DNA from: Candidatus Bathyarchaeia archaeon
GTDB lineage: Archaea > Thermoproteota > Bathyarchaeia > Bathyarchaeales > Bathycorpusculaceae
DNA: 64,000 nt
Direction: 5' to 3'
NCBI GenBank assembly: GCA_038883795.1
Contig: JAVZLK010000002.1
Location: 1 to 64,000, forward strand
Shown here: positions 1,586-55,031 of the stretch, one piece after another
Layout: the number at the start of each line of letters is the position of its first letter
How positions within the stretch are numbered: position 1 is the first letter of the stretch
The notes under the pieces: model-generated
Databases searched by the model: none
Told to the model about the DNA's origin: nothing
Seen by the model: the letters and a program-made list of their open reading frames with translations, nothing else
Position numbers and translations under genes: made by a program

Positions 1586-2539
1586 TTAACATGGCTTCTT
1601 CAATAGCTTGTTACCTAGATTGTTAAGCATTCGATAATAGGCTTTTGTTTTTTCGTGAGCTAATTGTATTGTGATTTTGGAAAATTCTATGGTGTCGTTT
1701 GGTTTTGCTTGTCCAAGCATGGAAACGTCTGGTGTGATGGCTACGGCAATTTTTGGATAGCCGCCCGTTGTTTGGGCGTCCCGCATTATCACAATTGGTT
1801 TTCCACTTTTTGGGACCTGAATTGCGCCTGGCAGAAGGGCATCCGAAACTATGTCTGCTTTTGCTTTATGCTCTATTGTTGGTCCTTCAAGTCGGTATCC
1901 CATGCGGTCCGCTTCTGGTGTGACTTTATATGGGTTTGAAAGGAAGGTCTTTATCCCATTTTCTGTAAACATGTCGGCTTGCGGTCCCAATACAACATGA
2001 ACTGTGAATTTGCCCGTATATTGGGGTATCAACTCTTCCGGCATTAAATACTTAGTTTTAAGGGGTGAAGTGGCGAAGCCTTCAATTATATCTCCACTTT
2101 TTAATTGCTTGCCGTTGATGCCTCCAAACCCGCCACGCACATAGGTGGATCTGCTTCCAAGCACCAGCGGCGTGTTTATTCCGCCTCTCATGGAAAGGTA
2201 TGCTCGGCATCCGCTTTTCATCTTTCCAAAAGAGATTATGTCACCTGCTTTTACTCGTAATGTTTGCCACATGGGAACATTTTCGTCATTAATTTTTGGT
2301 TCTGCGTTTCCACCTGTTATTGCAATATAAGTTTTTGTTAGGGCTTTAAGTTCTGGACCTATTAGGGTTATTTCTAAACAAGCCTCATTTGGGTTGTTTT
2401 CAACCAAGAGGTTTGCTGCAGTTAGTGCGAATTGATCCATGGCGCCTGAAATTGGCACGCCATATTGTAGATAGCCGTATCTTCCTAAGTCTTGGACGGT
2501 TGTGAATAATCCTGGTTTTAAAACTTGAAAAACTTGCAT
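1586..2539 (-). CDS. pxpC: 5-oxoprolinase subunit C (KipA / allophanate hydrolase subunit 2 family)
   Basis: PGLFTTVQDLGR, GVPISGAMD, DRMGYRL, DAQTTGGYPKI. Confidence 0.9.
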   Translation of the reverse strand: MQVFQVLKPGLFTTVQDLGRYGYLQYGVPISGAMDQFALTAANLLVENNPNEACLEITLIGPELKALTKTYIAITGGNAEPKINDENVPMWQTLRVKAGDIISFGKMKSGCRAYLSMRGGINTPLVLGSRSTYVRGGFGGINGKQLKSGDIIEGFATSPLKTKYLMPEELIPQYTGKFTVHVVLGPQADMFTENGIKTFLSNPYKVTPEADRMGYRLEGPTIEHKAKADIVSDALLPGAIQVPKSGKPIVIMRDAQTTGGYPKIAVAITPDVSMLGQAKPNDTIEFSKITIQLAHEKTKAYYRMLNNLGNKLLKKPC

Positions 2540-3280
2540 TTACTCTTCCTCAAAAGTAGGTTTCCATTCGCCTTTTGAGACGGCTTTTTCAATTGTTTTG
2601 AATTCACTTTCAGAAATTGGTTTAAACTTCACAATATCTCCTGGTTTTAGCAATGTAGGCGGTTGCTGAAGTGGATTGAAGAGTTTAAGTGGTGTTCTGC
2701 CTATTATTCGCCATCCTCCTGGTGCTTCGCAAGGGTAAATTCCCGTCTGTTTTTCTGCAATGCCCACGGAGCCTGCTGGAACTTTTAGTCTTGGTGTTTC
2801 AAGGCGTGGTGTTGCAATTTTGTCTGGAACTTCTCCCAAATATGGAAAACCAGCAACGAATCCAATCATGTAAACCCTATATTCCTTTTCAGAATGCAAC
2901 TTCACAACCATTTCTTCGGTTATCCCATGATATTTGGCGACAAAGCCTATGTCTGGTCCATATTCTCCACCATAAACTACTGGAACAATTATTTTTCTTC
3001 CTCGAGTTTCTTTGGCAAATTTATCAAGGTTTTTCTCAATGTCTTTAATTTGGAATACGAGGTGCTCGTAAGTGGTTTCTAATGGGTTATAGCGGATTAG
3101 GAGAGAGCGGTATGTGGGAACGGTTTCTTCGACTCCCTTAATGTTGGCTTTTGAAACAGTATGGTTTAGGACTATGACTTTTTGGTTTGCTTCAAGACTT
3201 ATTACATTGCCAAACTCAACGACTAGGGCGCTGTCGCCGAAAGGCAAGTAACGGGCAGATTCGTAAATTTTCGCTTGCAT
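2540..3280 (-). CDS. pxpB: 5-oxoprolinase subunit B (KipI family)
   Basis: GDSALVVEFG, VPTYRSLL, YGGEYGPD, GFVAGFPYL, PGGWRIIGRTP. Confidence 0.9.
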   Translation of the reverse strand: MQAKIYESARYLPFGDSALVVEFGNVISLEANQKVIVLNHTVSKANIKGVEETVPTYRSLLIRYNPLETTYEHLVFQIKDIEKNLDKFAKETRGRKIIVPVVYGGEYGPDIGFVAKYHGITEEMVVKLHSEKEYRVYMIGFVAGFPYLGEVPDKIATPRLETPRLKVPAGSVGIAEKQTGIYPCEAPGGWRIIGRTPLKLFNPLQQPPTLLKPGDIVKFKPISESEFKTIEKAVSKGEWKPTFEEE

Positions 3281-3298
3281 TGCTAAACCTTAAAATTG

Positions 3299-4072
3299 TT
3301 AGATAAAGTTGCCAACAGCCGTAACTTCTACTCTAGACTTAACCAGTTCCTTTTTTAAAGTCTGTGTTAATTTTATGGCTGTTGGTGTATCGCCATGCAC
3401 GCAGATGGTATGCACTTTACCTAAGGTTATGGCTTCACCGTTGACACCCAACACTTTTCCTTCCTTTATCACTTTTATGGTTCTTTCGAGAACTGCGGAT
3501 GGCTCCATGATGATGGAGTTTGGTTGTTTTCTTGAGACGAGGCTTCCATCGGGGTTGTAAGCTCTGTCAGCAAAAAACTCGTAGGCAACACGTAATCCTG
3601 CATTGCTGGCGACCTTAGCTAAGATTGATTTTGGAGGAGCAAAAATTATGAGGTTTTTGTCTAACGCCTTAACTGCTTCCACTATTCCCCTGCTTGTTTC
3701 CTCATCTTTTACCGCTGTATTGTATAATGCTCCATGAGGCTTCACATGTTGAAGGTTTAAGCCACCTATTTTTGCGAACCCTTGAAGGGCGCTAACCTGA
3801 TAAATTGTATAGTTTTTGATTTCTTCCATGGTTAGGCGCATTTCTCTCCTTCCAAAACCCAGAAGGTCTGGATAACCCGGATGAGCGCCCACGGCAACAC
3901 CATGCTTTTTAGCTAATTTAATAGTTTTTGCCATCGTCAGCGGGTCGCCTGCGTGGAATCCGCAGGCTACGTTTGCAGATGTTATGTATGGCATTATTCC
4001 CATGTCGTTTCCGACTTTAAATGCTCCGTAGCTTTCGCCTAAATCACAGTTTATATCTATTTTTAGCGTCAA
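3299..4072 (-). CDS. pxpA: 5-oxoprolinase subunit A (LamB/YcsF)
   Basis: DINCDLGES, SANVACGFHAGDP, HVKPHGALYN, TICVHGD. Confidence 0.93.
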   Translation of the reverse strand: MTLKIDINCDLGESYGAFKVGNDMGIMPYITSANVACGFHAGDPLTMAKTIKLAKKHGVAVGAHPGYPDLLGFGRREMRLTMEEIKNYTIYQVSALQGFAKIGGLNLQHVKPHGALYNTAVKDEETSRGIVEAVKALDKNLIIFAPPKSILAKVASNAGLRVAYEFFADRAYNPDGSLVSRKQPNSIIMEPSAVLERTIKVIKEGKVLGVNGEAITLGKVHTICVHGDTPTAIKLTQTLKKELVKSRVEVTAVGNFI

Positions 4073-4092
4073 CTTTTATCACTCTAATAATT

Positions 4093-5124
4093 TTATAGTG
4101 AAACGTATTTTCTCATGTCTTCGACAGCAGCGGAAGGCACTGGCAAATCTTTCATTGTAAGCAAGCCCGGCGGCGCCTTAATCACTTTTGGAATCGCGTT
4201 AACCACCATTGCTACTGTGCCTATGTCACCGTGCACGCATGGCTGAATTTTCTGTTTTACGTTTGGGACCCCATAAATTGTTATGGCGTCATATTCCTCT
4301 TCTGCGCCTATGTAGGCTTGAAAATCGAGGATAATAACCTCCTTATTCTTGATTATGCCCTTTGCCTTTTGTCGTAAACCCGCTGTTTGTCCAGTCTTGA
4401 CTTTTATGTGTTCGCTTTCTACTGGTTTTTTGGCGATTACTGGTTCAACTGGCTCGGCTATTATTTTGTCAAGTTTCCATGCTAGGGCATCAGCTATTAA
4501 GGCAATAGACTGCTCAAGTCCCACATGTCCCGTAATTTGCTTGGTTTCAATCTTCTTCTGAAACTCTTCAAGGGTTAAGCCAGCTCCAATCTTTTTTTGG
4601 AATGGCAAGCGCCTGGTGGCTGCATTCATAACTCTTACTGCTTCAATTTTCTCTATTTTTTGGCAGACGGCCGTAAGCGTTATCACTAGAGTGTCCATTA
4701 GGAAACCCGGGTTTATGCCTGTGCCCAAAACAGTTGAGCCATGCTTTTTAGCAAGCGTATCTAGTTCTCTTGCCATTTTTGGTTCTGTATAATATGGGTT
4801 AGCTAGTTCTTCGCATGTGGATACTACTTTGACGCCGTGTTTTATGAGGGTGGCTAATTGTTGGTGTGTGTCTTTTAGAAAGGAGGAGGTTGCGTGGATG
4901 GCTATGTCCGGTTTGGCTTTTGAAAGAACCGCATCAACGTTGTCTGAAATTTTGACGCCGACTTTCTTGTTTATGCCTAAAACTTCCCCTAAATCTTTTC
5001 CAACCTTATCTTTGGCAACGTCGATGGCTCCGACTATTTCCACTCCTTCCTTTTCAAGCAAAAACTTTGCAATTAAACTGCCAACAGCCCCAACTCCGAA
5101 AATGGCAACTCTTACTTTTTTCAT
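4093..5124 (-). CDS. 2,4-diaminopentanoate dehydrogenase (Ord) / native amine dehydrogenase family, DapB-like Rossmann fold
   Basis: GVGAVG dinucleotide motif, VGKDLGE, STCEEL, LGTGINPGF, C-terminal GDIGT...NAIP...APPGL. Confidence 0.8.
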   Translation of the reverse strand: MKKVRVAIFGVGAVGSLIAKFLLEKEGVEIVGAIDVAKDKVGKDLGEVLGINKKVGVKISDNVDAVLSKAKPDIAIHATSSFLKDTHQQLATLIKHGVKVVSTCEELANPYYTEPKMARELDTLAKKHGSTVLGTGINPGFLMDTLVITLTAVCQKIEKIEAVRVMNAATRRLPFQKKIGAGLTLEEFQKKIETKQITGHVGLEQSIALIADALAWKLDKIIAEPVEPVIAKKPVESEHIKVKTGQTAGLRQKAKGIIKNKEVIILDFQAYIGAEEEYDAITIYGVPNVKQKIQPCVHGDIGTVAMVVNAIPKVIKAPPGLLTMKDLPVPSAAVEDMRKYVSL

Positions 5125-5274
5125 TTGTTAGTCTCCTTTTTCGTTTATCTTTATTGTTTTTATGTTTCTATAAATTTGTCTTGTGGGTTTGATGGTGTTT
5201 TATTAATGTTCAAAAACTTTACGTTTGTAAAGTTTATATCTTGGAGAAACCTCAATAGTAAAGAGGCATAGAGG

Positions 5275-6711
5275 TTGCAAACCACAGAAACCATAATCTC
5301 TAAGGAAAACCTCAAAAAACTCTTAGACATTGAAAAATTGAAATACTGCTTCGAATGTGGCATCTGTACAGCCAGCTGTCCCATGGCAGAACTCTTGGGA
5401 GCATCCTACAACCCCAGGGGGCTTTTGGAAAAAATTTTCTTGAATCCCGAAAGCGTTCTTAATTCTGATGAGCTTTGGCTTTGTGCTTGGTGTTACCGCT
5501 GTTATAGGCATTGTCCACAAGCGCTTAAAATACCAGAAATCCTTCTCTTCTTGCGGAGAACAGCTGTAGAACACGGAATTTTAGCGCCTCTTGAAAATGC
5601 TCTGCAAAAAATAGTTGAGAATGTTCCGCTTCCGCTTGCAACCACTTTGGTTTGCTATCATCCAGAACGTGTTGGAATGGATAAAGAGAAAATTCTTGAA
5701 AAAATTGAGCAAATGCGCCTTGAACGTTTAAAGAAGAGAAAAAGAGCAAGAGCAACAAAAGATTCTCAAAGAAAAATTGCTGTTATAGGTTCTGGACCCG
5801 CCGGTCTCACAGTTGCCTACCAACTAGCTCAGAAAAAATGTAAAGTTACGATTTTTGAAGCTCTTCCCGAGGCGGGCGGAATGTTGAGGAAATGTATTCC
5901 TGAGTATCGCTTTCCAAAGCAAGTTTTAGCCAAAGAAATCAATTTCCTAAAAGATTTGGGTGTGGAAATAAGGACTGGCGTAACTGTTGGTAAGGATTTG
6001 AGTTTTGAAGATTTATGGAATGAAGGTTACAAAGCCATTTTTATCGGTGTTGGTGCTCATGAAAGTCAAAAATTAAGAGTTGAAGGTGTAGATTTGGAAG
6101 GCGTAATTCACGCCCTCGACTTTTTATGGAAAGTTAACTGTGGCGAAAAAATGGAAATGGGAAAGAATATCGCCGTTATTGGTGGCGGAAACGTTGCAAT
6201 AGACGCTGCCAGAACCGCACTGCAAAATGGCGCAAAGGAAGCCACAATCTTCTATCGCAGGTCAAGAGAGGAGATGCCAGCAAATCCATGGGAAGTTAAA
6301 GAAGCAGAAGATGAAGGCGTAAAAATCGAGTTTTTGGTTGCTCCTAAAAGATTTTTGGGAAAAAATGGGAAGGTTTCATCCATCGAGTTTGTTCGCATGC
6401 AACTCGGCGAGCCAGACGAGTCTGGCAGAAGGAAACCCATTCCAATAGAAGGTTCAGAATTCACAAGGGAAGCTGATATGGTGATTTTGGCGATAGGCGA
6501 GACACCAAATTTGAAATTTTTGCCAAAAGAGATAATGTTAAATGATGATGGAACCGTTTGGGTTGACCCAATAACCATGGAAACAAGCTTGAAAGGGGTT
6601 TTCGCTGGAGGGGACGCTGCCACGGGTCCGGCAACGGTTATTGAGGCAATTAAAGCTGGAAAGCGTGCTGCAGAATCGATTGAAAACTACTTGGAATCTT
6701 TGGGAGGATAA
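5275..6711 (+). CDS. Fusion of an HdrC-like 2x[4Fe-4S] domain and a GltD/NfnB-like FAD/NAD(P)H oxidoreductase
   Basis: N-terminal CFECGICTASCP and LWLCAWCYRCYRHCP; then GSGPAG, IPEYR, GGGNVAID, YRRS, FAGGD. Confidence 0.85.
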   Translation: MQTTETIISKENLKKLLDIEKLKYCFECGICTASCPMAELLGASYNPRGLLEKIFLNPESVLNSDELWLCAWCYRCYRHCPQALKIPEILLFLRRTAVEHGILAPLENALQKIVENVPLPLATTLVCYHPERVGMDKEKILEKIEQMRLERLKKRKRARATKDSQRKIAVIGSGPAGLTVAYQLAQKKCKVTIFEALPEAGGMLRKCIPEYRFPKQVLAKEINFLKDLGVEIRTGVTVGKDLSFEDLWNEGYKAIFIGVGAHESQKLRVEGVDLEGVIHALDFLWKVNCGEKMEMGKNIAVIGGGNVAIDAARTALQNGAKEATIFYRRSREEMPANPWEVKEAEDEGVKIEFLVAPKRFLGKNGKVSSIEFVRMQLGEPDESGRRKPIPIEGSEFTREADMVILAIGETPNLKFLPKEIMLNDDGTVWVDPITMETSLKGVFAGGDAATGPATVIEAIKAGKRAAESIENYLESLGG

Positions 6712-6715
6712 TGGC

Positions 6716-9124
6716 ATGGCTGAAGGTGAAATCCGCATCGGAGTTTATGTTTGCCACTGCGGCTTAAACATAGCTGGCTCCGTAGACTGCGAAGAAGTGG
6801 CAAAATACGCGGCAACCCTTCCTCATGTTGTTTTAGCAAAAGACAACCGTTACACATGCTCAGACCAAGGACAAGAAATGATAAAGAACGACATTAAAGA
6901 ACACAGGCTTAACCGTGTGGTTGTAGCTTCATGTTCGCCAAGGCTTCATGAACCCACCTTTAGAAAAACATGCGAAGATGCTGGTTTGAACAAGTATCTT
7001 TTTGAAATGGCTAACATACGCGAGCAGTGCAGTTGGGTGCATCTGCATGATCGGAAGGCTGCTACTGAAAAGGCTAAGGATCTTGTGAAGATGGTTGTGG
7101 CTAAGGCTGCTTTGCTTCAACCCGCAGAAGAAATTGAGGTGCCAATTATTCGGGAAGCCCTTGTGATTGGTGGTGGAGTGGCTGGCATCCAAGCGGCTTT
7201 GGATTTGGCTGATACCGGTTATAAAGTCTATTTAGTTGAGAAGGAGCCAAGCATCGGTGGGATGATGGCACGTATTGACAAGACTTTTCCAACGATGGAC
7301 TGTTCCATTTGTATTCTTGCGCCTAAAATGTCTGATGTTGGGCATCATCCAAACATTGAACTGTTAACCAATAGCGAAGTTATGGATGTGAAAGGGTACA
7401 TTGGCAACTTTAACGTTAAAGTTTTGAAAAAACCACGCTACGTCAAAAGTGACTGTTCAGCATGCGGAGAATGCTCAAAGGTTTGTCCAGTAATCGCTCC
7501 AAACGAGTTTGACGCTGGATTAGCTATAAGACATGCCATTTACACACCCTTCGCCCAAGCAGTTCCATCCACATACATAATTGACATGAGCAGATGCCTC
7601 AACAAAGACGGAGTAACCGTCTGCGACAAATGCATAAAGGCTTGCGAAAGACAAGCCATAGACTTTGACATGAAACCAGAAACCATAGAACTTAAAGTCG
7701 GAACAATAATAGTAGCCATAGGCGCAGATGTCTTCGACCCCTCTGTCTTACCGAATTATGGGTATGGAAAATACTCGAACGTGATAACGTCTCTTGAATT
7801 TGAAAGATTAATAAATGCTGGCGGTCCTTCGGGCGGGCATCTTATAAGACCAAGCGATATGCAAATTCCCCAACGGGTAGCTTTCATCCAATGTGTCGGT
7901 TCCCGTTCAGATAGAAATGGAAGACTATATTGCAGTAACGTTTGCTGCATGAACACAATAAAAGATAGCCTCCTCATTAAGGAGCATTGGCCTGAAACAG
8001 AAATTTACGTTTTTTACGTTGACATAAGGGCTTATGGAAAAGGTTTTGAAGACCTATACAAGCGTGCAAAAAAGGAAGGCGTCATATTCATCAGAGGGCT
8101 TCCAGCAGAGATAATAGAAGACAGAAAAACTCATAATTTGTGGCTCATCGGCGAAAACACGCTTCAGAAAGAGCTATACAAAATCAATGTTGACATGGTA
8201 ATTCTTTCGGTTGGTTTGGAGCCGAGAAAAGACAGTGAAATCATCCAGCGTTTGCTAACATTATCAAGAACTCAAGACGGCTTCTTTATGGAGGCGCATC
8301 CAAAACTTAGACCAGTAGACGCTGCCACTGGCGGAATATTCTTTGCTGGATGTGCTGAAGCGCCTAAAGACATAAAGGACAGCGTAACACAAGCAAGCGC
8401 CGCCGCTGCTAGAGCTGGCATTTTAATGGCTAAGGGAAAAGTGACTGTTGAAGCCATAACGCCAATTTCCTATGCCGATAAGTGTAAGGCTTGCGGGCTT
8501 TGCACAAAAGTTTGTCCCTATAATGCTATAACATTAAACAAGGAGTTAAAGCGCATTGAGATTATTGAGGCTGCTTGTGGCGGATGTGGAACTTGCGCTG
8601 CAGAATGTCCTTTTGATGCTTTAACCCAAAATCACTTTACTGATGAACAAATCTTAGCGCAGATAGATGCTGTAACGGAAGTTAATGCTGAAAAGAAAAT
8701 TGTTGCCTTCTGCTGTAACTGGTGCGCCTATGCTGGCGCAGACTTTGCTGGCGTAAGCCGAATGCAATATCCGCCCAACGTGCGAATAATAAGGACCATG
8801 TGTTCTGGACGGGTGGCTCCAAAATTCATAGAAAGAGCCTTTGCAAGGGGAGCCGCAGCCGTTTTAGTAGCTGGCTGTCATCCTGGAGACTGCCACTACA
8901 TAAATGCCAATTATCATACTAAAAGGCGTGTGGAACGTTTCTGGGAGAAAATGGAGAAAAATGGACTGAACAAGGAAAGGTTGCAGTTGTTGTGGGCTTC
9001 GGCGGCTGAAGGCGAAAGATTTGCTTCAAAAATCCGTGAAATGCAAGCCATAGTGGAAAAAGTGACCAGAGAAGAGATAGAAAATGGCAAAAGAGTTTTT
9101 GAAAAAGCCTTAGGTGGGAGTTAG
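6716..9124 (+). CDS. hdrA: Heterodisulfide reductase subunit A fused to MvhD
   Basis: GVYVCHCGLNI, SCSPRLHE, GGGVAG, DKTFPTMDCSICIL, QCVGSR, C-terminal ferredoxin, then MvhD motifs FCCNWCAYAGAD, MCSGRV, GCHPGDCHY. Start moved to ATG 6716 after GGAGG. Confidence 0.92.
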   Translation: MAEGEIRIGVYVCHCGLNIAGSVDCEEVAKYAATLPHVVLAKDNRYTCSDQGQEMIKNDIKEHRLNRVVVASCSPRLHEPTFRKTCEDAGLNKYLFEMANIREQCSWVHLHDRKAATEKAKDLVKMVVAKAALLQPAEEIEVPIIREALVIGGGVAGIQAALDLADTGYKVYLVEKEPSIGGMMARIDKTFPTMDCSICILAPKMSDVGHHPNIELLTNSEVMDVKGYIGNFNVKVLKKPRYVKSDCSACGECSKVCPVIAPNEFDAGLAIRHAIYTPFAQAVPSTYIIDMSRCLNKDGVTVCDKCIKACERQAIDFDMKPETIELKVGTIIVAIGADVFDPSVLPNYGYGKYSNVITSLEFERLINAGGPSGGHLIRPSDMQIPQRVAFIQCVGSRSDRNGRLYCSNVCCMNTIKDSLLIKEHWPETEIYVFYVDIRAYGKGFEDLYKRAKKEGVIFIRGLPAEIIEDRKTHNLWLIGENTLQKELYKINVDMVILSVGLEPRKDSEIIQRLLTLSRTQDGFFMEAHPKLRPVDAATGGIFFAGCAEAPKDIKDSVTQASAAAARAGILMAKGKVTVEAITPISYADKCKACGLCTKVCPYNAITLNKELKRIEIIEAACGGCGTCAAECPFDALTQNHFTDEQILAQIDAVTEVNAEKKIVAFCCNWCAYAGADFAGVSRMQYPPNVRIIRTMCSGRVAPKFIERAFARGAAAVLVAGCHPGDCHYINANYHTKRRVERFWEKMEKNGLNKERLQLLWASAAEGERFASKIREMQAIVEKVTREEIENGKRVFEKALGGS

Positions 9125-9126
9125 CT

Positions 9127-9405
9127 ATGCCCGTTAGACTTTGGCGCAAACCATTAGACACTGAAAAATTGAAGCTTCCAAAAGCCGAAATCCACATACT
9201 AAAAGACCAGTGTAAAGGATGCGGCTTCTGCATCCATTTCTGTCCCAAAAAAGTTTTGGAAGAATCTGAAGAAATAAATGCTAGAGGTGTTCATCCTCCA
9301 AAGATCGTTGATGAAAGCAAGTGCATCATTTGTAGTTTTTGCACTTCAGTTTGTCCAGACTTCGCAATTTTTGTTGTTGAAAAACCATGTAAAGAGGGAT
9401 GTTAA
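9127..9405 (+). CDS. korD: 2-oxoacid:ferredoxin oxidoreductase delta subunit (2x[4Fe-4S] ferredoxin)
   Basis: CKGCGFCIHFCP and CIICSFCTSVCPDFAI; directly upstream of alpha subunit. Confidence 0.85.
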   Translation: MPVRLWRKPLDTEKLKLPKAEIHILKDQCKGCGFCIHFCPKKVLEESEEINARGVHPPKIVDESKCIICSFCTSVCPDFAIFVVEKPCKEGC

Positions 9406-9407
9406 AT

Positions 9408-10559
9408 ATGAGTAGAAAAGGAGTAATCCTTGAAGGCAGCCACTTCATGAATGGCGACATTGCATGCGCAGAAGGCGCCATAGCCGCTGGTTGCAGATTC
9501 TTTGCTGGTTATCCAATAACGCCGGCAACAGAAATCGCTGAACACTTAGCTCAGCGCATGCCTGAAGTTGGCGGAATATACATTCAAATGGAAGATGAAA
9601 TAGCCTCCATCGCAGCAGTTATAGGCGCATCCTATGCAGGCTTAAAAGCTATGACAGCTACTTCCGGACCAGGTTTTAGTCTCATGCAAGAAAATATAGG
9701 TTTGGCTGTGATGACAGAAGCTCCATGCGTGATTGTGGATGTTATGCGTGGCGGACCCAGCACTGGACAACCAACATTGCCCGGACAGCAGGATGTTATG
9801 CAAGCTAAATGGGGTTCCCATGGAGATTACGAAATCATAGCTTTAGCGCCTTCTTCTGTTCAAGAAATGTTCGACTTAACCATTGAAGCCTTTAACTTGT
9901 CTGAAACTTACAGGGTTCCAGCAATAGTTTTGGCTGACGAGGTGGTTGGGCATATGTGGGAGAAGGTTGTGATTCCTCCTGCTGAAAAGATAAGAATTGT
10001 GAACCGAAAGAAGGCGAATGTTCCGTCGGAAGCTTATGCTCCGTTTATGCCTGATGATGATTTGGTTCCGCCCATGGCATGTTTTGGAGAAGGCTACAGC
10101 TTTCATGCTACTGGCTTGACGCATGATGAGTATGGTTATCCCCAAACATCCAGTTCCGAGGCTCAGCAAAAACTTGTGCAAAGATTATGCGATAAGATTA
10201 GGAAAAATGCGGATAAAATAATTAGAGTTGAAGAGGTTATGCTAGACGATGCCGATATGGTGGTTGTAGCTTATGGAATAGTTGCCAGAGCCGCACTCAG
10301 TGCTGTAAGAAAGGCTAGAGCAGAGGGAATAAAAGCTGGGCTTCTACGCCCAATCACTTTGTGGCCTTTCCCAGAAAAATATGTGGCAAAAATAGCCAAA
10401 CAAGCAAAAGCCATAGTGGTTCCAGAAATGAACTGTGGCCAACTGGTGCGTGAAGTGGAGAGGGCAGCAAAGGAAACACCCGTTGCTTTTCTTTCCAAGT
10501 TGGGAGAGGAACCTCACACGCCTATGGAGATTCTTGAGACAATAAGGAGGAATAGCTAA
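9408..10559 (+). CDS. korA: 2-oxoacid:ferredoxin oxidoreductase alpha subunit
   Basis: FFAGYPITPATE, QMEDE, TSGPGFSLM, MRGGPSTG, EMNCGQ; substrate not established. Confidence 0.88.
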   Translation: MSRKGVILEGSHFMNGDIACAEGAIAAGCRFFAGYPITPATEIAEHLAQRMPEVGGIYIQMEDEIASIAAVIGASYAGLKAMTATSGPGFSLMQENIGLAVMTEAPCVIVDVMRGGPSTGQPTLPGQQDVMQAKWGSHGDYEIIALAPSSVQEMFDLTIEAFNLSETYRVPAIVLADEVVGHMWEKVVIPPAEKIRIVNRKKANVPSEAYAPFMPDDDLVPPMACFGEGYSFHATGLTHDEYGYPQTSSSEAQQKLVQRLCDKIRKNADKIIRVEEVMLDDADMVVVAYGIVARAALSAVRKARAEGIKAGLLRPITLWPFPEKYVAKIAKQAKAIVVPEMNCGQLVREVERAAKETPVAFLSKLGEEPHTPMEILETIRRNS

Positions 10560-11398
10560 TGGAAACTATGATGGCGCATCCTTTTGCAAAATATTTACGA
10601 GAAGCCATGATGCCCCACATATGGTGTTCAGGCTGCGGTAACGGCATAATCCTAAACTGTTTTGTTCAAGCCGTGGACGAGCTGCAAATGGACCTTAACA
10701 AGCTTGTGGTTGTTTCTGGCATTGGCTGCATTGGAAGGGCAGCCGGATACGTCAACACAAACTCTTTTCACACCACTCATGGGCGCCCAATAGCCTTTGC
10801 CACTGGAGTAAAATTGGCAAATCCAGAGCTTGAAGTGGTGATTATAAGCGGTGATGGGGACCTCTTCGCCATAGGGGGAAACCACTTCATACATGCGGCT
10901 CGAAGAAACATTGGAATCAAAGTTATCTGTGCAAACAATTTCAATTATGGAATGACTGGGGGACAGCAAGGACCTACAACACCGCTTGAGGCTTTAACAA
11001 CCACAACCCCTTACGGAAACATTGAACACCCTTTTAATTTAGTGCATTTGGCAGCAGCATCAGGCGCTACTTATGTGGCTAGGTGGACAACTTTGCATGT
11101 GCGAAGGCTTACCCAATCCATCAAAAAATTGTTACAGAAGGAAGGTTTTGGGTTTATTGAAGTTGTTTCGCCATGTCCAGAAATCTTCGGTCGCCACAAT
11201 AAGATGCGAACTGGGCTTGAGATGATGGAATGGTTTAGAAAAGTTTCCACAATAGAAAACTTTTCCGACCCAGCGAAAGCAGAAATTACTCCAGAAAAAA
11301 TTGTCGTTGGAGAGTTTGTTGATATAGCAAAGGTTAGTTATGAAAAGCTGGTTCATGAAAAAATCGCTGAAATTAATGAAAAGAAAATGCAATGGTGA
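10559..11398 (+). CDS. korB: 2-oxoacid:ferredoxin oxidoreductase beta subunit
   Basis: WCSGCG, SGIGC, HGR, TPP motif GDGD...NN, GMTGGQ, SPCP. Confidence 0.88.
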   Translation: METMMAHPFAKYLREAMMPHIWCSGCGNGIILNCFVQAVDELQMDLNKLVVVSGIGCIGRAAGYVNTNSFHTTHGRPIAFATGVKLANPELEVVIISGDGDLFAIGGNHFIHAARRNIGIKVICANNFNYGMTGGQQGPTTPLEALTTTTPYGNIEHPFNLVHLAAASGATYVARWTTLHVRRLTQSIKKLLQKEGFGFIEVVSPCPEIFGRHNKMRTGLEMMEWFRKVSTIENFSDPAKAEITPEKIVVGEFVDIAKVSYEKLVHEKIAEINEKKMQW

Positions 11399-11403
11399 TT
11401 TAA

Positions 11404-11949
11404 ATGCGAATTGAAATTAGGTTTGCGGGTTTCGGCGGGCAAGGCATAATCAAATCTGGAATAATCACAGCTACAGCAGCATGCATCTACAGTGGAAAAA
11501 ATGCCGTTCAAACCCAATCTTACGGTCCAGAATCAAGGGGTGGAGCATGCAAATCCGAAGTTGTAATTTCAGAAGAGGAAATAGACTTTCCAAAGGTTGT
11601 TGAACCAGAAATCCTTGTAGTTATGTCTCAGCATGCCTACAATGAATATGCAGAAAACGTGAAAACAGGCGGCACAATAATCTTGGACCCAGACATGGTT
11701 CCCCACGAAAAAGAGCTGAAAAACGTCAAAGTCTTCAAAGTTCCAGCCACAAGAATTGCTGAAGAGCTAGGAAGGAAGATAGTTGCAAACATTGCCATGT
11801 TAGGCGCTTTTGTGGCTATCACTGGAGTTTTGGATAATGAGGCCGTTAAAGAATCCATTAAAGTAAATGTGCCAAAGGGTACTGAAGAACTGAATTTGAA
11901 AGCTTTTGAGAAAGGATACGAATACGGCAAAAACCTGTTGAAAAGTTAG
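11404..11949 (+). CDS. korC: 2-oxoacid:ferredoxin oxidoreductase gamma subunit
   Basis: AGFGGQG, QSYGPESRGG, ANIAMLGA, NLKAFEKG. Confidence 0.88.
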   Translation: MRIEIRFAGFGGQGIIKSGIITATAACIYSGKNAVQTQSYGPESRGGACKSEVVISEEEIDFPKVVEPEILVVMSQHAYNEYAENVKTGGTIILDPDMVPHEKELKNVKVFKVPATRIAEELGRKIVANIAMLGAFVAITGVLDNEAVKESIKVNVPKGTEELNLKAFEKGYEYGKNLLKS

Positions 11950-49074: not shown

Positions 49075-50430
49075 TTAATGACTGAAGGTTGGAACTTCGA
49101 TTTTTTCCGGTTCATAATCTACTAGTTTGCCGCTGAGGAACTGTTCATAGGCTGTTAAGTCGAGCAAACCATGTCCACTATAATTCATTGCGATTACTTT
49201 TTTCTCGCCAGTTTTCTTACATCTTAATGCTTCATCTATTACGAATTTTAGGCTGTGGGCGGTTTCTGGAGCGATTATTAACCCTTCTGTTTGGGCCAAA
49301 ATTTTGGCAGCTTCGAAAACTTCGTTTTGACTGTAAGCTACAGAGCGCATATACCCCTTATGTATTAGGTAGGATATTGAAGGAGCCATTCCATGATATC
49401 GCAAACCGCCAGCATGAATAGGCGGACACGCATATCCATGTCCAATTGTTAACATTTTCAAAAGCGGTGTCATTTTGCCAGTGTCTCCATAATCATATGT
49501 GTAAACGCCCCTTGTCGTGTGGGGAACAGCCTTTGACTCGCAAGCCACAAATTCCGTGTTTGTCCTGCCTTTGAGTTTGTCCATCATAAAGGGATATGCG
49601 AAGCCTGCATAGTTAGAGCCTCCTCCTATGCATCCACAAACTACGTCTGGGTAAGTATCTATTAGTTCAAACTGTTTCTTGGCTTCTAAGCCAACTATTG
49701 TTTGGTGCATGAGCACGTGATTCAGAACAGAGCCCAAAGAGTATCGTGTGTCTTCGTTTGTAAGTGTGTCTTCTATGGCTTCTGTTATGGCTATTCCCAA
49801 AGTTCCTGGGTTTTCCGGGTTTTCTTTGAGCAGTTTTCTGCCGAAGTTTGTTTGTTCGCTTGGTGATGGAAACATTTCTGCGCCGTAAATTTGCGCTATG
49901 ATTCTTCTGCCTGGTTTTTGGTGATAGCTTGCTCTAACCATGTAGATTCGGCATTTTAATCCGAAAATTGTGCATGAGAAGGCTAAGGCGGTGCCCCATT
50001 GTCCCGCTCCAGTTTCCGTCACTAGTCTTTTTATTCCTTGTTCTTTATTGTAGTAGGCTTGTGCTAGGGCCGTGTTGGTTTTGTGGCTTCCCGTAGGGCT
50101 AAAGTTTTCACATTTAAAGTATATTTGAGCTGGTGTTTTCAGATAACTTTCTAATCTTTTTGCCCTATACAGCGGTGTGGGACGTGGAAGCCTTAGATAT
50201 GCATCCAAAACGTCTTCTGGAATTTTTATGTAGCGTTCTGTGGAAACTTCTTGTTTTATAAGTTCTTTCGCAAATATTCTCTCTAATAATTGTGGGCTTA
50301 TGGGTTTTAGGGTTGTAGGGTCTAATGGTGGCGGTAACGGTTCTGGAAGGTCTGCCTGTATGTTATACCATTCTCTTGGTATTTCTTCCGGGCTGAGAAG
50401 CGTGAAGCTTTCGTTGATTTTTTGATGCAT
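49075..50430 (-). CDS. trpB2: Tryptophan synthase beta chain 2 (TrpB2)
   Basis: WYNIQADLP, RPTPL.RA..LE, GSHK.NTA, TETGAGQWG, GSVLNHV, GGGSN, HAGGLRYHG, SGHG. Confidence 0.95.
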   Translation of the reverse strand: MHQKINESFTLLSPEEIPREWYNIQADLPEPLPPPLDPTTLKPISPQLLERIFAKELIKQEVSTERYIKIPEDVLDAYLRLPRPTPLYRAKRLESYLKTPAQIYFKCENFSPTGSHKTNTALAQAYYNKEQGIKRLVTETGAGQWGTALAFSCTIFGLKCRIYMVRASYHQKPGRRIIAQIYGAEMFPSPSEQTNFGRKLLKENPENPGTLGIAITEAIEDTLTNEDTRYSLGSVLNHVLMHQTIVGLEAKKQFELIDTYPDVVCGCIGGGSNYAGFAYPFMMDKLKGRTNTEFVACESKAVPHTTRGVYTYDYGDTGKMTPLLKMLTIGHGYACPPIHAGGLRYHGMAPSISYLIHKGYMRSVAYSQNEVFEAAKILAQTEGLIIAPETAHSLKFVIDEALRCKKTGEKKVIAMNYSGHGLLDLTAYEQFLSGKLVDYEPEKIEVPTFSH

Positions 50431-50439
50431 ACAGATGCC

Positions 50440-50533
50440 CCTTCATGTATGTTTTTGTTCATTTATGTATGGTAATATACTAAAGATGACACGAACATAT
50501 TTATACTTTACTGCACAAAACAGTACATGAAGG
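50440..50533. promoter_or_regulatory. 19-bp inverted repeat bracketing the divergent trpB2 / ACT-regulator promoter
   Basis: CCTTCATGTATGTTTTTGT (50440-50458) versus ACAAAACAGTACATGAAGG (50515-50533): 16/19 complementary; arms end 9 and 10 nt before the two ATGs. Confidence 0.65.
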
Positions 50534-50543
50534 AACCCGAAAT

Positions 50544-51047
50544 ATGTGGAGCAAAATCGTAAAATACCTAGAAGGCTATCCAGAAAGACTAAAAGTAGCC
50601 AGAGTTCTCGTCGAAAATGGACTAAGCGTAAGAAACGGAAAAATCTACCTTAACGAAATCGAAATCCCACCAGTTCGCATAGCCAGAGTCGCCAAAGTAG
50701 ACAGAAGAACAGTAAACGAGACGCTAAATGCCATCCGCACAAACCACGAACTAAAACAAATCTTTGAAGGATTAAGGTCAGCAGGACACTCTTTAAAAGA
50801 AATTGCCAAACATTTAGACTTTGGAGTTGTTGAAATAACGCCTGTGGATGCTAAAATGCCAGGCATACTTGCAGGCTCCGCCTCACTTCTTGCGAAAGCT
50901 GGTTTAAGCATAAGACAAGCAATAGTTGATGACCCAGAATTGTCGCCTGAACCTAAATTGACTTTGATTGCTGAGAAAAAAATTCCAGGCGAATTAATCC
51001 CAGAACTTTTGAAAATAAAGGGCATAGCCAAAGTTTCAGTTTACTAA
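50544..51047 (+). CDS. Predicted amino-acid metabolism regulator with HTH and ACT domains (COG2150)
   Basis: IARVAKVDRRTV HTH; PGILA, SIRQAIVDDPEL..P.LT ACT domain. Confidence 0.88.
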   Translation: MWSKIVKYLEGYPERLKVARVLVENGLSVRNGKIYLNEIEIPPVRIARVAKVDRRTVNETLNAIRTNHELKQIFEGLRSAGHSLKEIAKHLDFGVVEITPVDAKMPGILAGSASLLAKAGLSIRQAIVDDPELSPEPKLTLIAEKKIPGELIPELLKIKGIAKVSVY

Positions 51048-51134: not shown

Positions 51135-54100
51135 ATGCTTAGGATAGGCGTTTACGTTTGCCACTGTGGCTTAAACATTGCTGGCGTGGTTGATGTAGAG
51201 AAAGTGGCTGAATACGCTGGGAAATTGCATGATGTTGTGGTGGCTAAGCATTATGTTTACATGTGTTCTGAAACTGGACAGCGCATGATTAAAGAAGACA
51301 TTAAGGCACATAATCTTGACAGGATAGTTATCGCCACATGTTCGCCGAGGATGCATGAAGAAACCTTCCGCAAAACTGTTGCTGAAGCAGGCTTAAATCC
51401 TTACTTGCTTGAAATCGTCAATTTAAGAGAGCACGTCTCGTGGGTTCACAGCGAAGAGCCAGAAAAAGCTACAGAAAAGGCGAAAGACCTTGTGAGGGTG
51501 GGTGTAGCCCGTGCGAGATTTTTAGAGCCCTTACAAAGAAGTAAAGTGCCTGCTGAGAAGAGTGTTTTAGTTTTGGGCGGTGGAATAGCGGGAATACAAG
51601 CAGCCCTTGATTTAGCCAATGCGGGCTTGAAGGTTTTTTTGGTGGAGAAGTCTCCAAGCATTGGCGGAAAAATGGCTTTACTTGACAAGACATTTCCAAC
51701 CCTTGATTGTAGTGCATGTATATTAACGCCAAAAATGACCGAAGTGGCAAGGCATCAAAATATACAATTGATAACTTGTGCAGAAGTGGAAAACGTATCG
51801 GGTTTTGTAGGCAACTATGAAGTCTCTATAATAAAAAACCCGAGATATGTGGACGAAGCTAAATGCACAGGTTGTGGCGAATGCGAAAAGGTATGCCCAG
51901 TTGCATTACCGAACGAGTTTGAATTGAAGCTTGCCGAAAGAAAAGCCATTTACAGACCCTACCCCCAAGCAGTTCCAAACGTTTACACCATAGACAAAAA
52001 GGGCACAGCCCGCTGCAGAGCCGCTTGTCCAGCAGGCGTAAACGCTCAAGGCTACGTTGCCCTTATAGCAAAGGGAAAATTCAAAGAAGCCTACGAGTTA
52101 ATTAGAAAAGCCATACCATTCCCCGCGGTTTTGGGAAGAGTTTGTTTTCACCCATGCGAGAACGACTGTGAAAGGGGCGATGTTGAGGAGCCAATTGCAA
52201 TTTGCGCCCTAAAACGTTATGTTGCAGATTACATGATGAGACAACCCCAAGAGAAGCCTACTCGAATTCCACCAAAATATGAAGAAAAAATTGCTGTAAT
52301 AGGTGCGGGTCCAGCGGGGTTAACTGCAGCTTACGAATTAGTTAGAATGGGTTATTCAGTAACAGTTTTTGAGGCTTTGCCAGAACCAGGCGGCATGTTA
52401 AGGATAGGCATACCAGAATATAGGCTTCCAAAAAAGATTTTGGCGAAAGAAGTTGAATATTTGGAAAGTTTAGGTGTTCAAATTCGCACTAATGTAACTA
52501 TTGGTAAAGATTTAAGTTTTGAAGATTTGAATAAAATGGGGTATAAGGCAGTTTTCTTAGCCGTTGGCATGCAAAAAAGCCTAACATTAGGCATTGAAGG
52601 AGAAGAATTACAAGGCGTTTTTCAAGGCGTCGAATTCTTAAAAAATGTGAATTTGGGTAAAAAAGTTGAAGTCGGAGAACGTGTCGCCGTAATAGGCGGT
52701 GGAAACGTCGCTATTGACGTTTCAAGAGTTGCATTACGGTTAGGCGCCAAAAAAGTTTACATTCTGTACAGAAGGTCAAGAGAAGAAATGCCCGCATTCC
52801 AACCAGAAGTTGAGCAAGCAGGAAAGGAAGGTGTTGAATTTCTCTTCCTCAAAGCGCCTAAAAGAATCATCGGCGAAAATGGCAGGGTTGTCGCTGTTGA
52901 ATGTTTTGAAATGATGCTCACCGAACCAGATGAAACAGGAAGAAGAAAACCAGTTCCTATCGAAGGTTCAGAACATGTAATTCCAGTGGACACAGTTATC
53001 ACAACCATAGGTCAAGCTTTAGATGTGGCTTCTCTACCGAAAGGGTTGAAGCTGAACCATGGCACAATAGAAGTTGACCCCAAAACTCTTCAAACAAACA
53101 TACCCAACATATTTGCAGGTGGAGACGCAGTTTTGGGTCCAGCCACAGTTATCGAAGCAGTAGCAGCTGGGAAAAGAGCGGCAATTTCCATCCACAAATA
53201 CTTACGGGGCGAAGACTTGAAAGCTATTGAAGAGGAAGAGCTGCCTCCAGTTAAGATATCGCCTAAAATAGGCATTGAGAAAAAGAAAAGGCAAGCCATG
53301 CCTCTTCTGCCAGTTGAAGAAAGAATTAGAAGTTTTGATGAGGTTGAGTTGGGCCTTAGCGAAGAAATGGCTATCGAAGAAGCGAAACGTTGTCTTGCTT
53401 GTGGCGGCTGCTCCGAATGCCTAGAGTGCGAAAAGATATGTGAAGCAAAGGCAATTGACCACAAACAAAGGCTTCAAAGAATAAACGTGAAAGTTGGTGC
53501 AATAATAATTGCCACTGGAAGCGAACTTTTCGATGCCTCAAAAATCCAAGAATACAGTTTCGGAAAATCCAAAAACATAATCACAAACCTCCAATTTGAA
53601 AGACTATGCAATGCTTCTGGACCCACAAGCGGAAAAATCCTTTGCCCACAAAACGGCAAAACACCAAAAGCCGTGACTTTCATCCAATGTGTAGGTTCAA
53701 GGGATTCGAGGTTTCATGAATATTGTTGTCGTATCGGTTGCATGGCAACATTAAAGCAAGCAATCCTCACTCGAGAAAAACTTGGCAAGGAGGTGGATAT
53801 TTATGTTTGTTTTAATGACATGCGGGCTTTTGGTAAGGGTTATGACGAGTTTTATGGGCGAGCAAGAGAAATGGGCATAAACTTTGTCGCTGGCTTGCCC
53901 TCCGAAATCCGCTGCGCCTCTGATGGTTCGCTTTACTTTGACGTTTATGATAAGGGAACAAACAAGCTCTTAGAACTGCGTTCAGACCTTGTTGTGCTTG
54001 CCAGCGGGCTTGTCCCTAACAGCGACTTGGGAAAAATAAGCAGCATATTCCATGTTTCAAGAAGCGCCGATGGCTTCCTATTAGAAGCCCATCCGAAACT

Positions 54101-54518
54101 TCGCCCTCTGGAAAGTGCAATAACTGGAATTTTCATTGCTGGCACATGCCAAGGTCCAAAAGATATCCCCGATACTGTGGCTCAAGCAAGTGGGGCAGCA
54201 GCAAAAGCCATAGACCTTTTGGCAAGTGGGGAGATTGAGCTTGAACCATTGAAAGCAGTTGTTGACGAAGACTTATGCAGTGGCTGTCGCCTTTGCGAGG
54301 CAATATGCCCATTTGTTGCCATAGAGATGAAAACTGAAACTTTGGATGGTGCTGAAAGGGTTAGGGCTGAGGTTGTAGAAGCCATGTGTCAAGGCTGTGG
54401 TTTATGCGTTTCAGCTTGTCCCACTAAGGCTATTATAATGCGCCATTACACTGATGAGCAATTCCTTGCGCAGGTTAAGGCTGCATGTTTAGAAACGGAA
54501 GCCCTTGGAGGTGGCTAA
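51135..54518 (+). CDS. HdrA with inserted GltD/NfnB-like NAD(P)H oxidoreductase module (HdrL-type)
   Basis: HdrA N-terminus (VCHCGLNI, DKTFPTLDCSACIL); insert CRAACP, GRVCFHPCENDC, GAGPAG, GGGNVAID, EAKRCL; then QCVGSRD, GTCQGPKDI, C-terminal ferredoxin. Confidence 0.9.
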   Translation: MLRIGVYVCHCGLNIAGVVDVEKVAEYAGKLHDVVVAKHYVYMCSETGQRMIKEDIKAHNLDRIVIATCSPRMHEETFRKTVAEAGLNPYLLEIVNLREHVSWVHSEEPEKATEKAKDLVRVGVARARFLEPLQRSKVPAEKSVLVLGGGIAGIQAALDLANAGLKVFLVEKSPSIGGKMALLDKTFPTLDCSACILTPKMTEVARHQNIQLITCAEVENVSGFVGNYEVSIIKNPRYVDEAKCTGCGECEKVCPVALPNEFELKLAERKAIYRPYPQAVPNVYTIDKKGTARCRAACPAGVNAQGYVALIAKGKFKEAYELIRKAIPFPAVLGRVCFHPCENDCERGDVEEPIAICALKRYVADYMMRQPQEKPTRIPPKYEEKIAVIGAGPAGLTAAYELVRMGYSVTVFEALPEPGGMLRIGIPEYRLPKKILAKEVEYLESLGVQIRTNVTIGKDLSFEDLNKMGYKAVFLAVGMQKSLTLGIEGEELQGVFQGVEFLKNVNLGKKVEVGERVAVIGGGNVAIDVSRVALRLGAKKVYILYRRSREEMPAFQPEVEQAGKEGVEFLFLKAPKRIIGENGRVVAVECFEMMLTEPDETGRRKPVPIEGSEHVIPVDTVITTIGQALDVASLPKGLKLNHGTIEVDPKTLQTNIPNIFAGGDAVLGPATVIEAVAAGKRAAISIHKYLRGEDLKAIEEEELPPVKISPKIGIEKKKRQAMPLLPVEERIRSFDEVELGLSEEMAIEEAKRCLACGGCSECLECEKICEAKAIDHKQRLQRINVKVGAIIIATGSELFDASKIQEYSFGKSKNIITNLQFERLCNASGPTSGKILCPQNGKTPKAVTFIQCVGSRDSRFHEYCCRIGCMATLKQAILTREKLGKEVDIYVCFNDMRAFGKGYDEFYGRAREMGINFVAGLPSEIRCASDGSLYFDVYDKGTNKLLELRSDLVVLASGLVPNSDLGKISSIFHVSRSADGFLLEAHPKLRPLESAITGIFIAGTCQGPKDIPDTVAQASGAAAKAIDLLASGEIELEPLKAVVDEDLCSGCRLCEAICPFVAIEMKTETLDGAERVRAEVVEAMCQGCGLCVSACPTKAIIMRHYTDEQFLAQVKAACLETEALGGG

Positions 54519-54520
54519 AT

Positions 54521-55030: not shown

Positions 55031-55031
55031 A

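Follow-up and report, generated by a model that had tools for sequence, protein, structure and literature searches.

The first 64,000 nucleotides of contig JAVZLK010000002.1 of a Candidatus Bathyarchaeia archaeon (assembly GCA_038883795.1; this whole stretch is hereafter the window) carry a gene for a dehydrogenase of the family PF19328, placed between the three genes of a PxpABC-type 5-oxoprolinase and a divergent operon of Hdr, GltD and Kor type. Judged from its pocket residues, this dehydrogenase is a member of the orphan group G1 of the native amine dehydrogenases, and no 2,4-diaminopentanoate (2,4-DAP) dehydrogenase. We propose, tentatively and at somewhat less than an even chance, that it would be an NAD-linked enzyme turning a glutamate-type amino acid into 2-oxoglutarate, optionally fed by lactam opening and coupled to Kor.

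At the family level the protein has what defines the native amine dehydrogenases: the PF19328 (183 bits) and DapB_N (44 bits) domains and the catalytic Glu at pocket position P3 (E105, which corresponds to E102 of AmDH4). Among solved structures it is closest to 7XDU and to AmDH4 of Petrotoga mobilis (6G1H/6G1M), at E ~1e-77. Its top NCBIfam match is NF040740, the Ord equivalog, at 349.2 bits for a cut-off of 400, so that the name “ord-like” is valid at family level only; TIGR01921 (meso-diaminopimelate dehydrogenase) also gives a weak match (E 5.6e-4). Elisee et al. (2024, PMC11164908) distinguish five groups of native amine dehydrogenases, G1 to G5, of which G2 holds the true 2,4-DAP dehydrogenases. 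We carried the positions P1-P21 from the AmDH4 table of that paper (supplementary file 10) onto the window protein through its alignment with AmDH4, which gave S81, C104, E105, G136, I137, N138, F141, L142, R164, M166, N167, R171, F175, I179, H200, V201, G202, F268, A270, G299 and T303. This pocket equals the G1 rows of the same file at 20 of 21 positions and departs from G2/Ord at P2, P10, P12, P14, P18 and P19. Where G2 is described with Phe or Tyr at P12, Asn at P10, Gln at P14, His at P18 and Gln at P19 (PMC11164908), we find R171, M166, I179, F268 and A270. Group G1, in its 1,427 models, keeps the Arg of P9 and the His of P15 and replaces the Phe of P12 by Arg (PMC11164908); all three residues are present here (R164, H200 and R171), those of P9 and P15 being shared with Ord like the fold and Glu P3. 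Arg occupies P12 in 119 of 119 aligned homologues. The original prediction, which saw in this Ord homologue a possible non-canonical dehydrogenase of glutamate or another gamma-amino acid, is borne out in that the enzyme is no canonical Ord, the Arg standing at the pocket position for the methyl of 2,4-DAP. Besides, Asp35 at the cofactor position R1 suggests a preference for NAD, by the rule given in section 10 of PMC11164908.

The Arg at P12 of G1 was read by Elisee et al. as binding a negative group where the methyl of the substrate sits (PMC11164908). A glutamate-type substrate, which would have a carboxylate at that place, would need such a residue. The same authors sought the substrate of G1, for which they give E1QRK4, D2RES1 and A0A256ZH63 as examples, by docking, virtual screening, context analysis and assays, without result: in 2024 they described the G1 substrates as not known and their context analysis (NetSyn) as giving no clear clue (PMC11164908). 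The native amine dehydrogenases were assayed there in the aminating direction. According to Supplementary Data 2, which shows only two substrates, no more than about ten G1 proteins (counting the references) could be seen in crude lysate; two G1 enzymes were active on 2,4-DAP (PMC11164908). Wording on glutamate, oxoglutarate or glutamic has no match in 11 supplements of that paper, Supplementary Table 4 not being among them. Nothing sets the window protein apart from other G1 enzymes; what we add to the group is a genomic context.

This context was examined for close homologues of 45-94% identity, in 80 loci of which almost all bear the label Bathyarchaeia; the set is biased to close relatives, and its genes were mapped by tblastn. 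The pxp/dehydrogenase/kor layout is not unique to the source genome. The position just downstream of the dehydrogenase is taken by pxpABC in 32 loci, and in one by pxpA on its own; by hyuA-hyuB in six, with a seventh, convergent case; by a D-glutamate-cyclase-like gene (PF14336) in four; directly by moaE in 26; and by other genes in five; five loci have no DNA to judge. On the upstream side, the full set of hdrC-gltD, hdrA2 and kor is found in 47 loci, four more being cut within the set, kor without hdrC-gltD in three, HdrA-like with TfrA/TfrB-like fumarate-reductase genes in two, the S3Ae gene directly in seven (all seven also without a lactam enzyme) and other genes in ten; seven have no DNA to judge. 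Malate dehydrogenase stands on this side in locus L039, and TfrA/TfrB-like, flavodoxin and malate dehydrogenase genes adjoin the dehydrogenase and Kor in the locus variants L020, L036, L039 and L160; in genome G557, fumarate-reductase-like genes lie ahead of the dehydrogenase on the same strand. The two links drawn by the original prediction, to lactam opening and to Kor, are thus met again beyond the window: unrelated PxpABC, HyuAB and D-glutamate-cyclase-like genes recur beside the dehydrogenase, and Kor, fumarate-reductase-like and malate dehydrogenase genes on its other side. Three of the loci (L033, L052 and L071, filed under Thermoplasmatota, Acidiferrales and Krumholzibacteriaceae) show the Bathyarchaeia gene order at 68-75% identity and are probably mis-binned contigs.

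We built a tree of 87 dehydrogenase proteins, comprising that of the window, those of 78 of the 80 close loci (two short ones were dropped) and those of 8 out of 40 distant Thermoproteota loci. The downstream states undergo at least 17 changes on this tree: a large clade is characterised by pxpABC, which was lost many times in it, and includes a nested hyuAB clade, and the cyclase-like and hyuAB states are found on basal branches. HyuAB beside the dehydrogenase best match the caprolactamase CapA/CapB, at 548 and 349 bits, far under the cut-off of 1000. In the 40 distant loci, a class-III aminotransferase is the immediate neighbour in nine and lies within 5 kb in four more, several of those beside the dehydrogenase scoring best, below cut-off, against glutamate-1-semialdehyde aminomutase models; an amidase, an aldehyde dehydrogenase, M20 and M19 peptidases and amino-acid transporters are other neighbours there. 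Aminotransferases commonly use the glutamate/2-oxoglutarate pair.

Some further neighbours were recorded on the way. In other Thermoproteota, and on one Dehalococcoidales-labelled and one Euryarchaeota-labelled contig, class-III aminotransferases stand next to a G1 dehydrogenase (L129, L131, L139-L141, L146-L148, L151, L073 and L078). A protein of the Asp/Glu/hydantoin racemase superfamily (Pfam Amdase; best NCBIfam matches arylmalonate decarboxylase and EutA, below cut-off) adjoins the dehydrogenase or its partners in three loci (L070:12051-12758, L129:4940-5659 and L163:1362-2075), and pxpABC without dehydrogenase in another (L158:5844-6575). Two genomes of family f13 have a creatininase-family amidohydrolase gene between those of the dehydrogenase and the cyclase-like protein (L162:1607-2380 and L163:4875-5648), in a cluster that also holds an amino-acid-type ATP-binding cassette transporter.

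Co-occurrence was then counted in 251 evenly drawn Bathyarchaeia genomes. The dehydrogenase is present in 132 of them and PxpA in 15, nine of which have both; the two genes are adjacent in eight of these nine, the ninth being a fragmentary assembly. Cyclase-like genes are found in 35 of the 251, with high-scoring copies in 12 genomes, eight of them with the dehydrogenase; in six of these eight the high-scoring gene lies within 3 kb of it, in either orientation, and the lower-scoring subfamily is never on the contig of the dehydrogenase. A second sample covered the source organism's own family, with one genome for each of 41 genera. The dehydrogenase occurs in 29 of the genera, and the HdrC-GltD orthologue in 20 of these 29 versus none of the 12 genera without dehydrogenase. 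Of the 20 sharing genera, 15 have the pair in divergent orientation with no more than 200 bp between them; the distance is 1.3-1.9 kb in three and 6.6 kb in one, and in one the genes are on different contigs. In reading these figures it must be kept in mind that genera are kin, not independent, and that adjacent genes can vanish in one deletion. In a wider sample of Thermoproteota the dehydrogenase is present in 110 of 401 genomes, i.e. about a quarter.

From genomic context and homology we infer a substrate, a direction of flux, a set of activities and, possibly, a physical complex, as follows. The dehydrogenase would interconvert a glutamate-type amino-dicarboxylate with 2-oxoglutarate and ammonia, in an NAD(H)-linked reaction, glutamate itself, of either stereochemistry, being the most likely substrate. 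The distal carboxylate would be bound by R164 and H200, as it is in Ord, and the one attached to the carbon that carries the amine by R171, with E105 as the catalytic glutamate. PxpABC may act as an optional, ATP-dependent feeder opening 5-oxoproline to glutamate; HyuAB-type lactamases or D-glutamate-cyclase-like proteins could take its place in other Bathyarchaeia. KorDABC would oxidise the 2-oxoacid to acyl-CoA, and HdrA2-MvhD with HdrC-GltD would pass electrons between ferredoxin and NAD(P). Two kinds of evidence suggest the glutamate-type dehydrogenase: the neighbours (5-oxoproline enzymes, aminotransferases, Kor and enzymes of the C4 branch) share the glutamate/2-oxoglutarate node, and the pocket combines two carboxylate-binding sites at Ord spacing with the loss of the polar residues by which G2 is distinguished from G1.

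The genes of the window are identified at family level, from Pfam and NCBIfam profiles with curated cut-offs, in an assembly that is 87% complete. Open reading frames and family profiles confirm the layout first described, with pxpCBA and the dehydrogenase running leftward and hdr/kor rightward, 150 nt apart. On the minus strand the dehydrogenase (4093-5124) is followed after 20 nt by pxpA (3299-4072; 5-oxoprolinase subunit A, LamB/YcsF; PF03746 329.6 bits, NF003814 354.9 for a cut-off of 226), after 18 nt by pxpB (2540-3280; subunit B; PF02682 255.2 bits, TIGR00370 222.6, cut-off 145.55) and, with a gap of 0 nt, by pxpC (1586-2539; subunit C, carboxyltransferase subdomains A/B; PF02626 325.5 bits, TIGR00724 314.5, cut-off 230.2). 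PxpC passes only at this domain-level TIGR00724 model, its score against the PxpC equivalog NF045499 being 254.6 bits, under the cut-off of 500. Past pxpC, and after a 31-nt gap, moaE (1054-1554) and then a DUF47 gene continue the leftward strand; as these two are packed just as closely, short gaps by themselves say little in so compact a genome. The region is flanked by archaeal S3Ae and RecJ genes.

On the plus strand, the genes from hdrC-gltD to korC have gaps or overlaps of at most 7 nt. The first (5275-6711) encodes an HdrC-like 2x[4Fe-4S] domain (Fer4_8, residues 22-82; TIGR03290 HdrC, 77 bits over residues 23-114) fused to a GltD/NfnB-like NAD(P)H flavoprotein (Pyr_redox_2, residues 167-462; PRK12771, 367.9 bits over residues 76-474). 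It is followed by HdrA2 with a fused MvhD domain (6716-9124; NF040770 HdrA2, 1281.3 bits, cut-off 1100). The frame is open from 6641, and the likely start is the ATG at 6716, preceded by GGAGG; counted from 6641, the FlpD/MvhD domain covers residues 687-807. All four subunits of the Kor/Oor type come next: korD, the ferredoxin-like delta subunit (9127-9405; best NCBIfam match NF042987 OGOR_delta, 67.1 bits, under the cut-off of 125); korA, the 2-oxoacid:acceptor oxidoreductase alpha subunit (9399-10559; PRK08659 596.7 bits, cut-off 411; PRK09627, 2-oxoglutarate synthase alpha, 415 bits, under its cut-off of 579); korB, the thiamine pyrophosphate-binding beta subunit (10559-11398; PF02775; best match PRK09628, 2-oxoglutarate ferredoxin oxidoreductase beta, 275 bits, under the cut-off of 364); and korC, the gamma subunit (11404-11949; PRK08537 255.1 bits, cut-off 235).

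The operon contains no CCG/HdrB gene and therefore does not qualify as an HdrABC heterodisulfide reductase; HdrB-like genes lie elsewhere in the window, at 55032-55901. They belong to a second HdrA/GltD pairing of the window, here with a disulfide-reducing subunit: at 51135-55901, on the plus strand, a 1,127-residue HdrA with an inserted GltD-like NAD(P)H module (about residues 288-788) is followed by HdrC (54485-55030) and HdrB (55032-55901). Directly upstream of this fusion gene, at 49075-51047, a TrpB-like pyridoxal phosphate enzyme (above cut-off) is divergent from a TrpY-family regulator. Just past the window, on the same contig, the assembly has another Kor-type set of alpha, beta and gamma genes (G000:C2:70720-73172), at 41-53% identity to the one studied here, and Por/Vor-like sets are found on contigs C1 and C4 of the assembly.

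The 150-nt divergent spacer (5125-5274) holds TATA-like boxes and a palindrome, TTTAC/GTAAA with a 4-nt spacer (5218-5231), whose core is conserved in an alignment of 49 divergent spacers. In its 6+6 form the palindrome has only two copies in the assembly, the second (G000:C5:64717) immediately ahead of a paralogous gltD-like/hdrA-like cluster; we regard it as a candidate operator for Hdr/GltD operons. As it tracks hdr/kor and recurs at the paralogous cluster of contig C5, we rejected an operator shared with the dehydrogenase. A scan for bacterial-type promoters and terminators, unsuited to archaea, gave counts no higher than in shuffled sequences. One raw-read RNA run has no read on the locus, and two runs filed as metatranscriptomic consist of short contigs, probably DNA, with even cover.

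Several observations weigh against a glutamate dehydrogenase tied to lactam opening and Kor. Only 9 of the 132 Bathyarchaeia genomes with the dehydrogenase have PxpA, and 6 of the 15 with PxpA are devoid of the dehydrogenase. HyuB, present in 94 of the 251 genomes, adjoins the dehydrogenase in three (of one genus) and lies near it in one. Five dehydrogenase genomes, with moaE directly downstream, contain no PxpA, HyuB or cyclase-like gene, the cyclase blank being weak since the PF14336 control matched nowhere. In genome G257, of another family of the same order and 99% complete, moaE-pxpCBA stands head-to-head with hdrC-gltD-hdrA2-korDA in the absence of any PF19328 gene, about 140 bp separating pxpA from hdrC-gltD (locus L154; G257:C46, 5000-5912); this genome lost the dehydrogenase alone, so that neither neighbour needs it. 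In relatives that lack the dehydrogenase or have it displaced, the spacer palindrome still accompanies hdr or kor. As all these genomes are related, much of the shared layout is inherited. The specificity of Kor is a family-level call, the beta and delta subunits being under curated cut-offs. Two GdhA-type genes are present in the assembly, on contig C1 (G000:C1:245042-253736; L081 and L082), and glutamate dehydrogenase (GDH) occurs in 31 of the 41 genera, both with and without the G1 enzyme; a dehydrogenase for L-glutamate would thus be redundant. Finally, G1 enzymes are reported as inactive on hypothesised substrates, in a list that may include 2-oxoglutarate (PMC11164908), which is a real risk for our proposal.

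Taken together, these losses indicate that the link of the dehydrogenase to its neighbours is facultative. The original prediction had the dehydrogenase connecting PxpABC to Kor: the recurrent adjacency supports this, and the low share of genomes with PxpA, the genomes without lactam enzyme and the loss in G257 show that the connection is not obligatory. The check that it suggested, whether the genome is devoid of gdhA, came out negative. On the whole its glutamate-dehydrogenase interpretation is partly supported. Two narrower proposals were dropped. HyuAB cannot be a general partner, with three adjacent and one near case in the even sample; its rare adjacency makes it an occasional one. The G1 enzyme is no complement or replacement of canonical GDH either, as the latter occurs irrespective of it. 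About 4 kb separates the two GdhA-type genes, which are on opposite strands. The open reading frame of one has 620 residues, with the GDH match from residue 199 only; long (~590-620 residues) and short (~420 residues) GDH forms recur paired in relatives. Two loci with pxpABC and no dehydrogenase carry aminotransferases instead, of class I/II in L157 and of classes IV and III in L159, which counts in favour of the glutamate-type reading.

The redundancy with canonical GDH makes D-glutamate a live option. By our own stereochemical reasoning, if the binding mode of Ord is kept, a carboxylate takes the place of the methyl at P12 and the (S)-selectivity for 4-aminopentanoate is retained, the glutamate enantiomer that matches this geometry is (R), that is D-glutamate. 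That the G1 enzymes, including the window protein, would be natural NAD-dependent D-glutamate dehydrogenases is a decidedly unlikely proposal as a whole; it would explain their coexistence with canonical L-glutamate dehydrogenases, and the cyclase-like and racemase-superfamily neighbours are consistent with it. Natural NAD(P)-dependent dehydrogenases acting on a D-amino-acid centre exist, as meso-diaminopimelate dehydrogenase does; this enzyme has a related DapB-like N-terminal domain and belongs to a different family, and would be a precedent if G1 acts on D-glutamate.

The points gathered above can be turned into another explanation, which is rather unlikely in our view: the modules would be neighbours by descent only, PxpABC repairing or salvaging spontaneous 5-oxoproline, Hdr/GltD-Kor being self-contained and the G1 enzyme acting on an unrelated amine. 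The 26 of 80 loci with moaE directly downstream and no pxpABC, the seven S3Ae-abutting loci without the Hdr-Kor block, the 123 of 132 dehydrogenase genomes without PxpA and the lone loss in G257 all go in this direction, as do the equally tight moaE and DUF47 genes, the palindrome that belongs to hdr/kor and the published NetSyn analysis, reported as giving no clear clue for G1 (PMC11164908). However, chance alone does not explain why three unrelated lactam-type families came to lie beside the same gene in separate branches, nor why PxpA (eight of nine) and high-scoring cyclase-like genes (six of eight) stand beside the dehydrogenase when they share a genome with it, nor the confinement of HdrC-GltD to the genera that have it. 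Alternatively, the dehydrogenase might serve amino-acid or lactam catabolism with a substrate other than glutamate, an amine whose amine-bearing carbon adjoins a carboxylate or a carbonyl, such as: the ring-opening product of a caprolactamase- or creatininase-like enzyme, 2-aminoadipate, or a compound of the glutamate-1-semialdehyde/4,5-diaminovalerate type made by the HemL-like aminotransferase. We hold this for unlikely. The adjoining HyuAB nearest to CapA/CapB and the class-III aminotransferases nearest to glutamate-1-semialdehyde aminomutase models, both below cut-off, suggest such compounds, as do creatininase-family, amidase, M20 peptidase and amidohydrolase neighbours and the reported inactivity of G1 enzymes on hypothesised substrates (PMC11164908). 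On the other hand, the 5-oxoproline/glutamate pair is the only one on which PxpABC and D-glutamate cyclase have been characterised, as their family names and PMC5339696 have it; with Kor, fumarate-reductase-like and malate dehydrogenase genes around, the context speaks for C4/C5 dicarboxylates, and two Arg and one His in the pocket suit a dicarboxylate at Ord spacing.

The same enzymes could in principle run backwards as a biosynthetic reductive branch, flavin-based bifurcation by Hdr/GltD with NAD(P)H driving Kor as a 2-oxoglutarate synthase (from succinyl-CoA and CO2), the dehydrogenase aminating the product to glutamate and PxpABC being incidental. The fumarate-reductase-like, flavodoxin and malate dehydrogenase variants are indeed steps of a reductive branch, HdrA is a family of bifurcating flavoproteins whose HdrA2 model is passed here, and native amine dehydrogenases were assayed in the aminating direction (PMC11164908). 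This direction nevertheless looks very unlikely to us: canonical GDH genes are already present, the lactam-opening enzymes, aminotransferases, amidases and amino-acid transporters nearby suggest catabolism, and the operon has no high-potential acceptor module (HdrB). As for a true 2,4-DAP dehydrogenase of ornithine fermentation, PF19328, the top rank of NF040740 and the activity of two G1 enzymes on 2,4-DAP (PMC11164908) recall it, yet it is hardly credible given a score of 349.2 for a cut-off of 400 and a G2 signature missed at P10, P12, P14, P18 and P19. In addition, no ornithine-pathway neighbour is found among the 130 homologue loci examined, and a search of the 87%-complete assembly gave no match to PF09043, the TIM barrel of ornithine aminomutase type, a weak negative as the family matched no control genome (ortAB and oraS were not searched). 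The catabolic, glutamate-type reading is the one that we keep in what follows.

Compared with known systems, the window combines familiar parts in an unfamiliar arrangement. Its dehydrogenase differs from Ord/G2 in its P12 Arg instead of Phe, in the hydrophobic M, I, F and A at P10, P14, P18 and P19 where Ord has N, Q, H and Q, and in having no ornithine-pathway gene nearby. Its pxpABC has three adjacent genes of the same three families as pxpTABC of Corynebacterium glutamicum (PMC13274462), but lacks an adjoining pxpT transporter or pxpR regulator and lies behind a G1 dehydrogenase on the same strand. The kor genes resemble KorABCD/OorDABC in having four subunits in one operon, with 2-oxoglutarate-type models as the best ones, and are unlike them in sharing the operon with HdrA2-MvhD and the HdrC-GltD fusion. 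HdrA2 with fused MvhD, an HdrC-like di-cluster domain and a GltD-like flavoprotein recall the MvhADG-HdrABC, HdrA2B2C2 and GltD/NfnB modules; in contrast to HdrA-based bifurcating complexes, the operon has no HdrB, hence no disulfide-reducing site, its HdrC is fused to GltD and the partner is a 2-oxoacid oxidoreductase. The logic proposed here, ATP-dependent lactam opening then removal of the freed amine, is that of the caprolactam pathway, where CapAB is followed by an omega-aminotransferase (PMC8453981); in the window a dehydrogenase would carry out this removal instead, on what the pocket suggests to be a dicarboxylate.

In the open-access literature searched we found no description of a pairing between G1 and lactam enzymes, of a D-glutamate dehydrogenase or of an HdrA-GltD-Kor complex. 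The parts belong to known families; what appears new is the assignment of this gene to the orphan group G1, the repeated pairing of G1 with lactam-type enzymes and Kor, and the substrate hypothesis. The Bathyarchaeia neighbourhoods give this group concrete and cheaply testable candidate substrates: L- and D-glutamate and 2-oxoglutarate, with enzymes that open 5-oxoproline acting upstream. If the proposal is true, a function would be assigned to an orphan enzyme group found in 110 of 401 Thermoproteota genomes, and the Kor complex linked to HdrA/GltD would gain a physiological substrate stream. A natural NAD-dependent D-glutamate dehydrogenase, if it is one, would also be of interest to biocatalysis, and Thermoproteota would then burn D-glutamate and 5-oxoproline from necromass via Kor. 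More generally, 5-oxoproline and glutamate, possibly D-glutamate, would have a new route into the energy metabolism of archaea that are abundant in sediments and hot springs.

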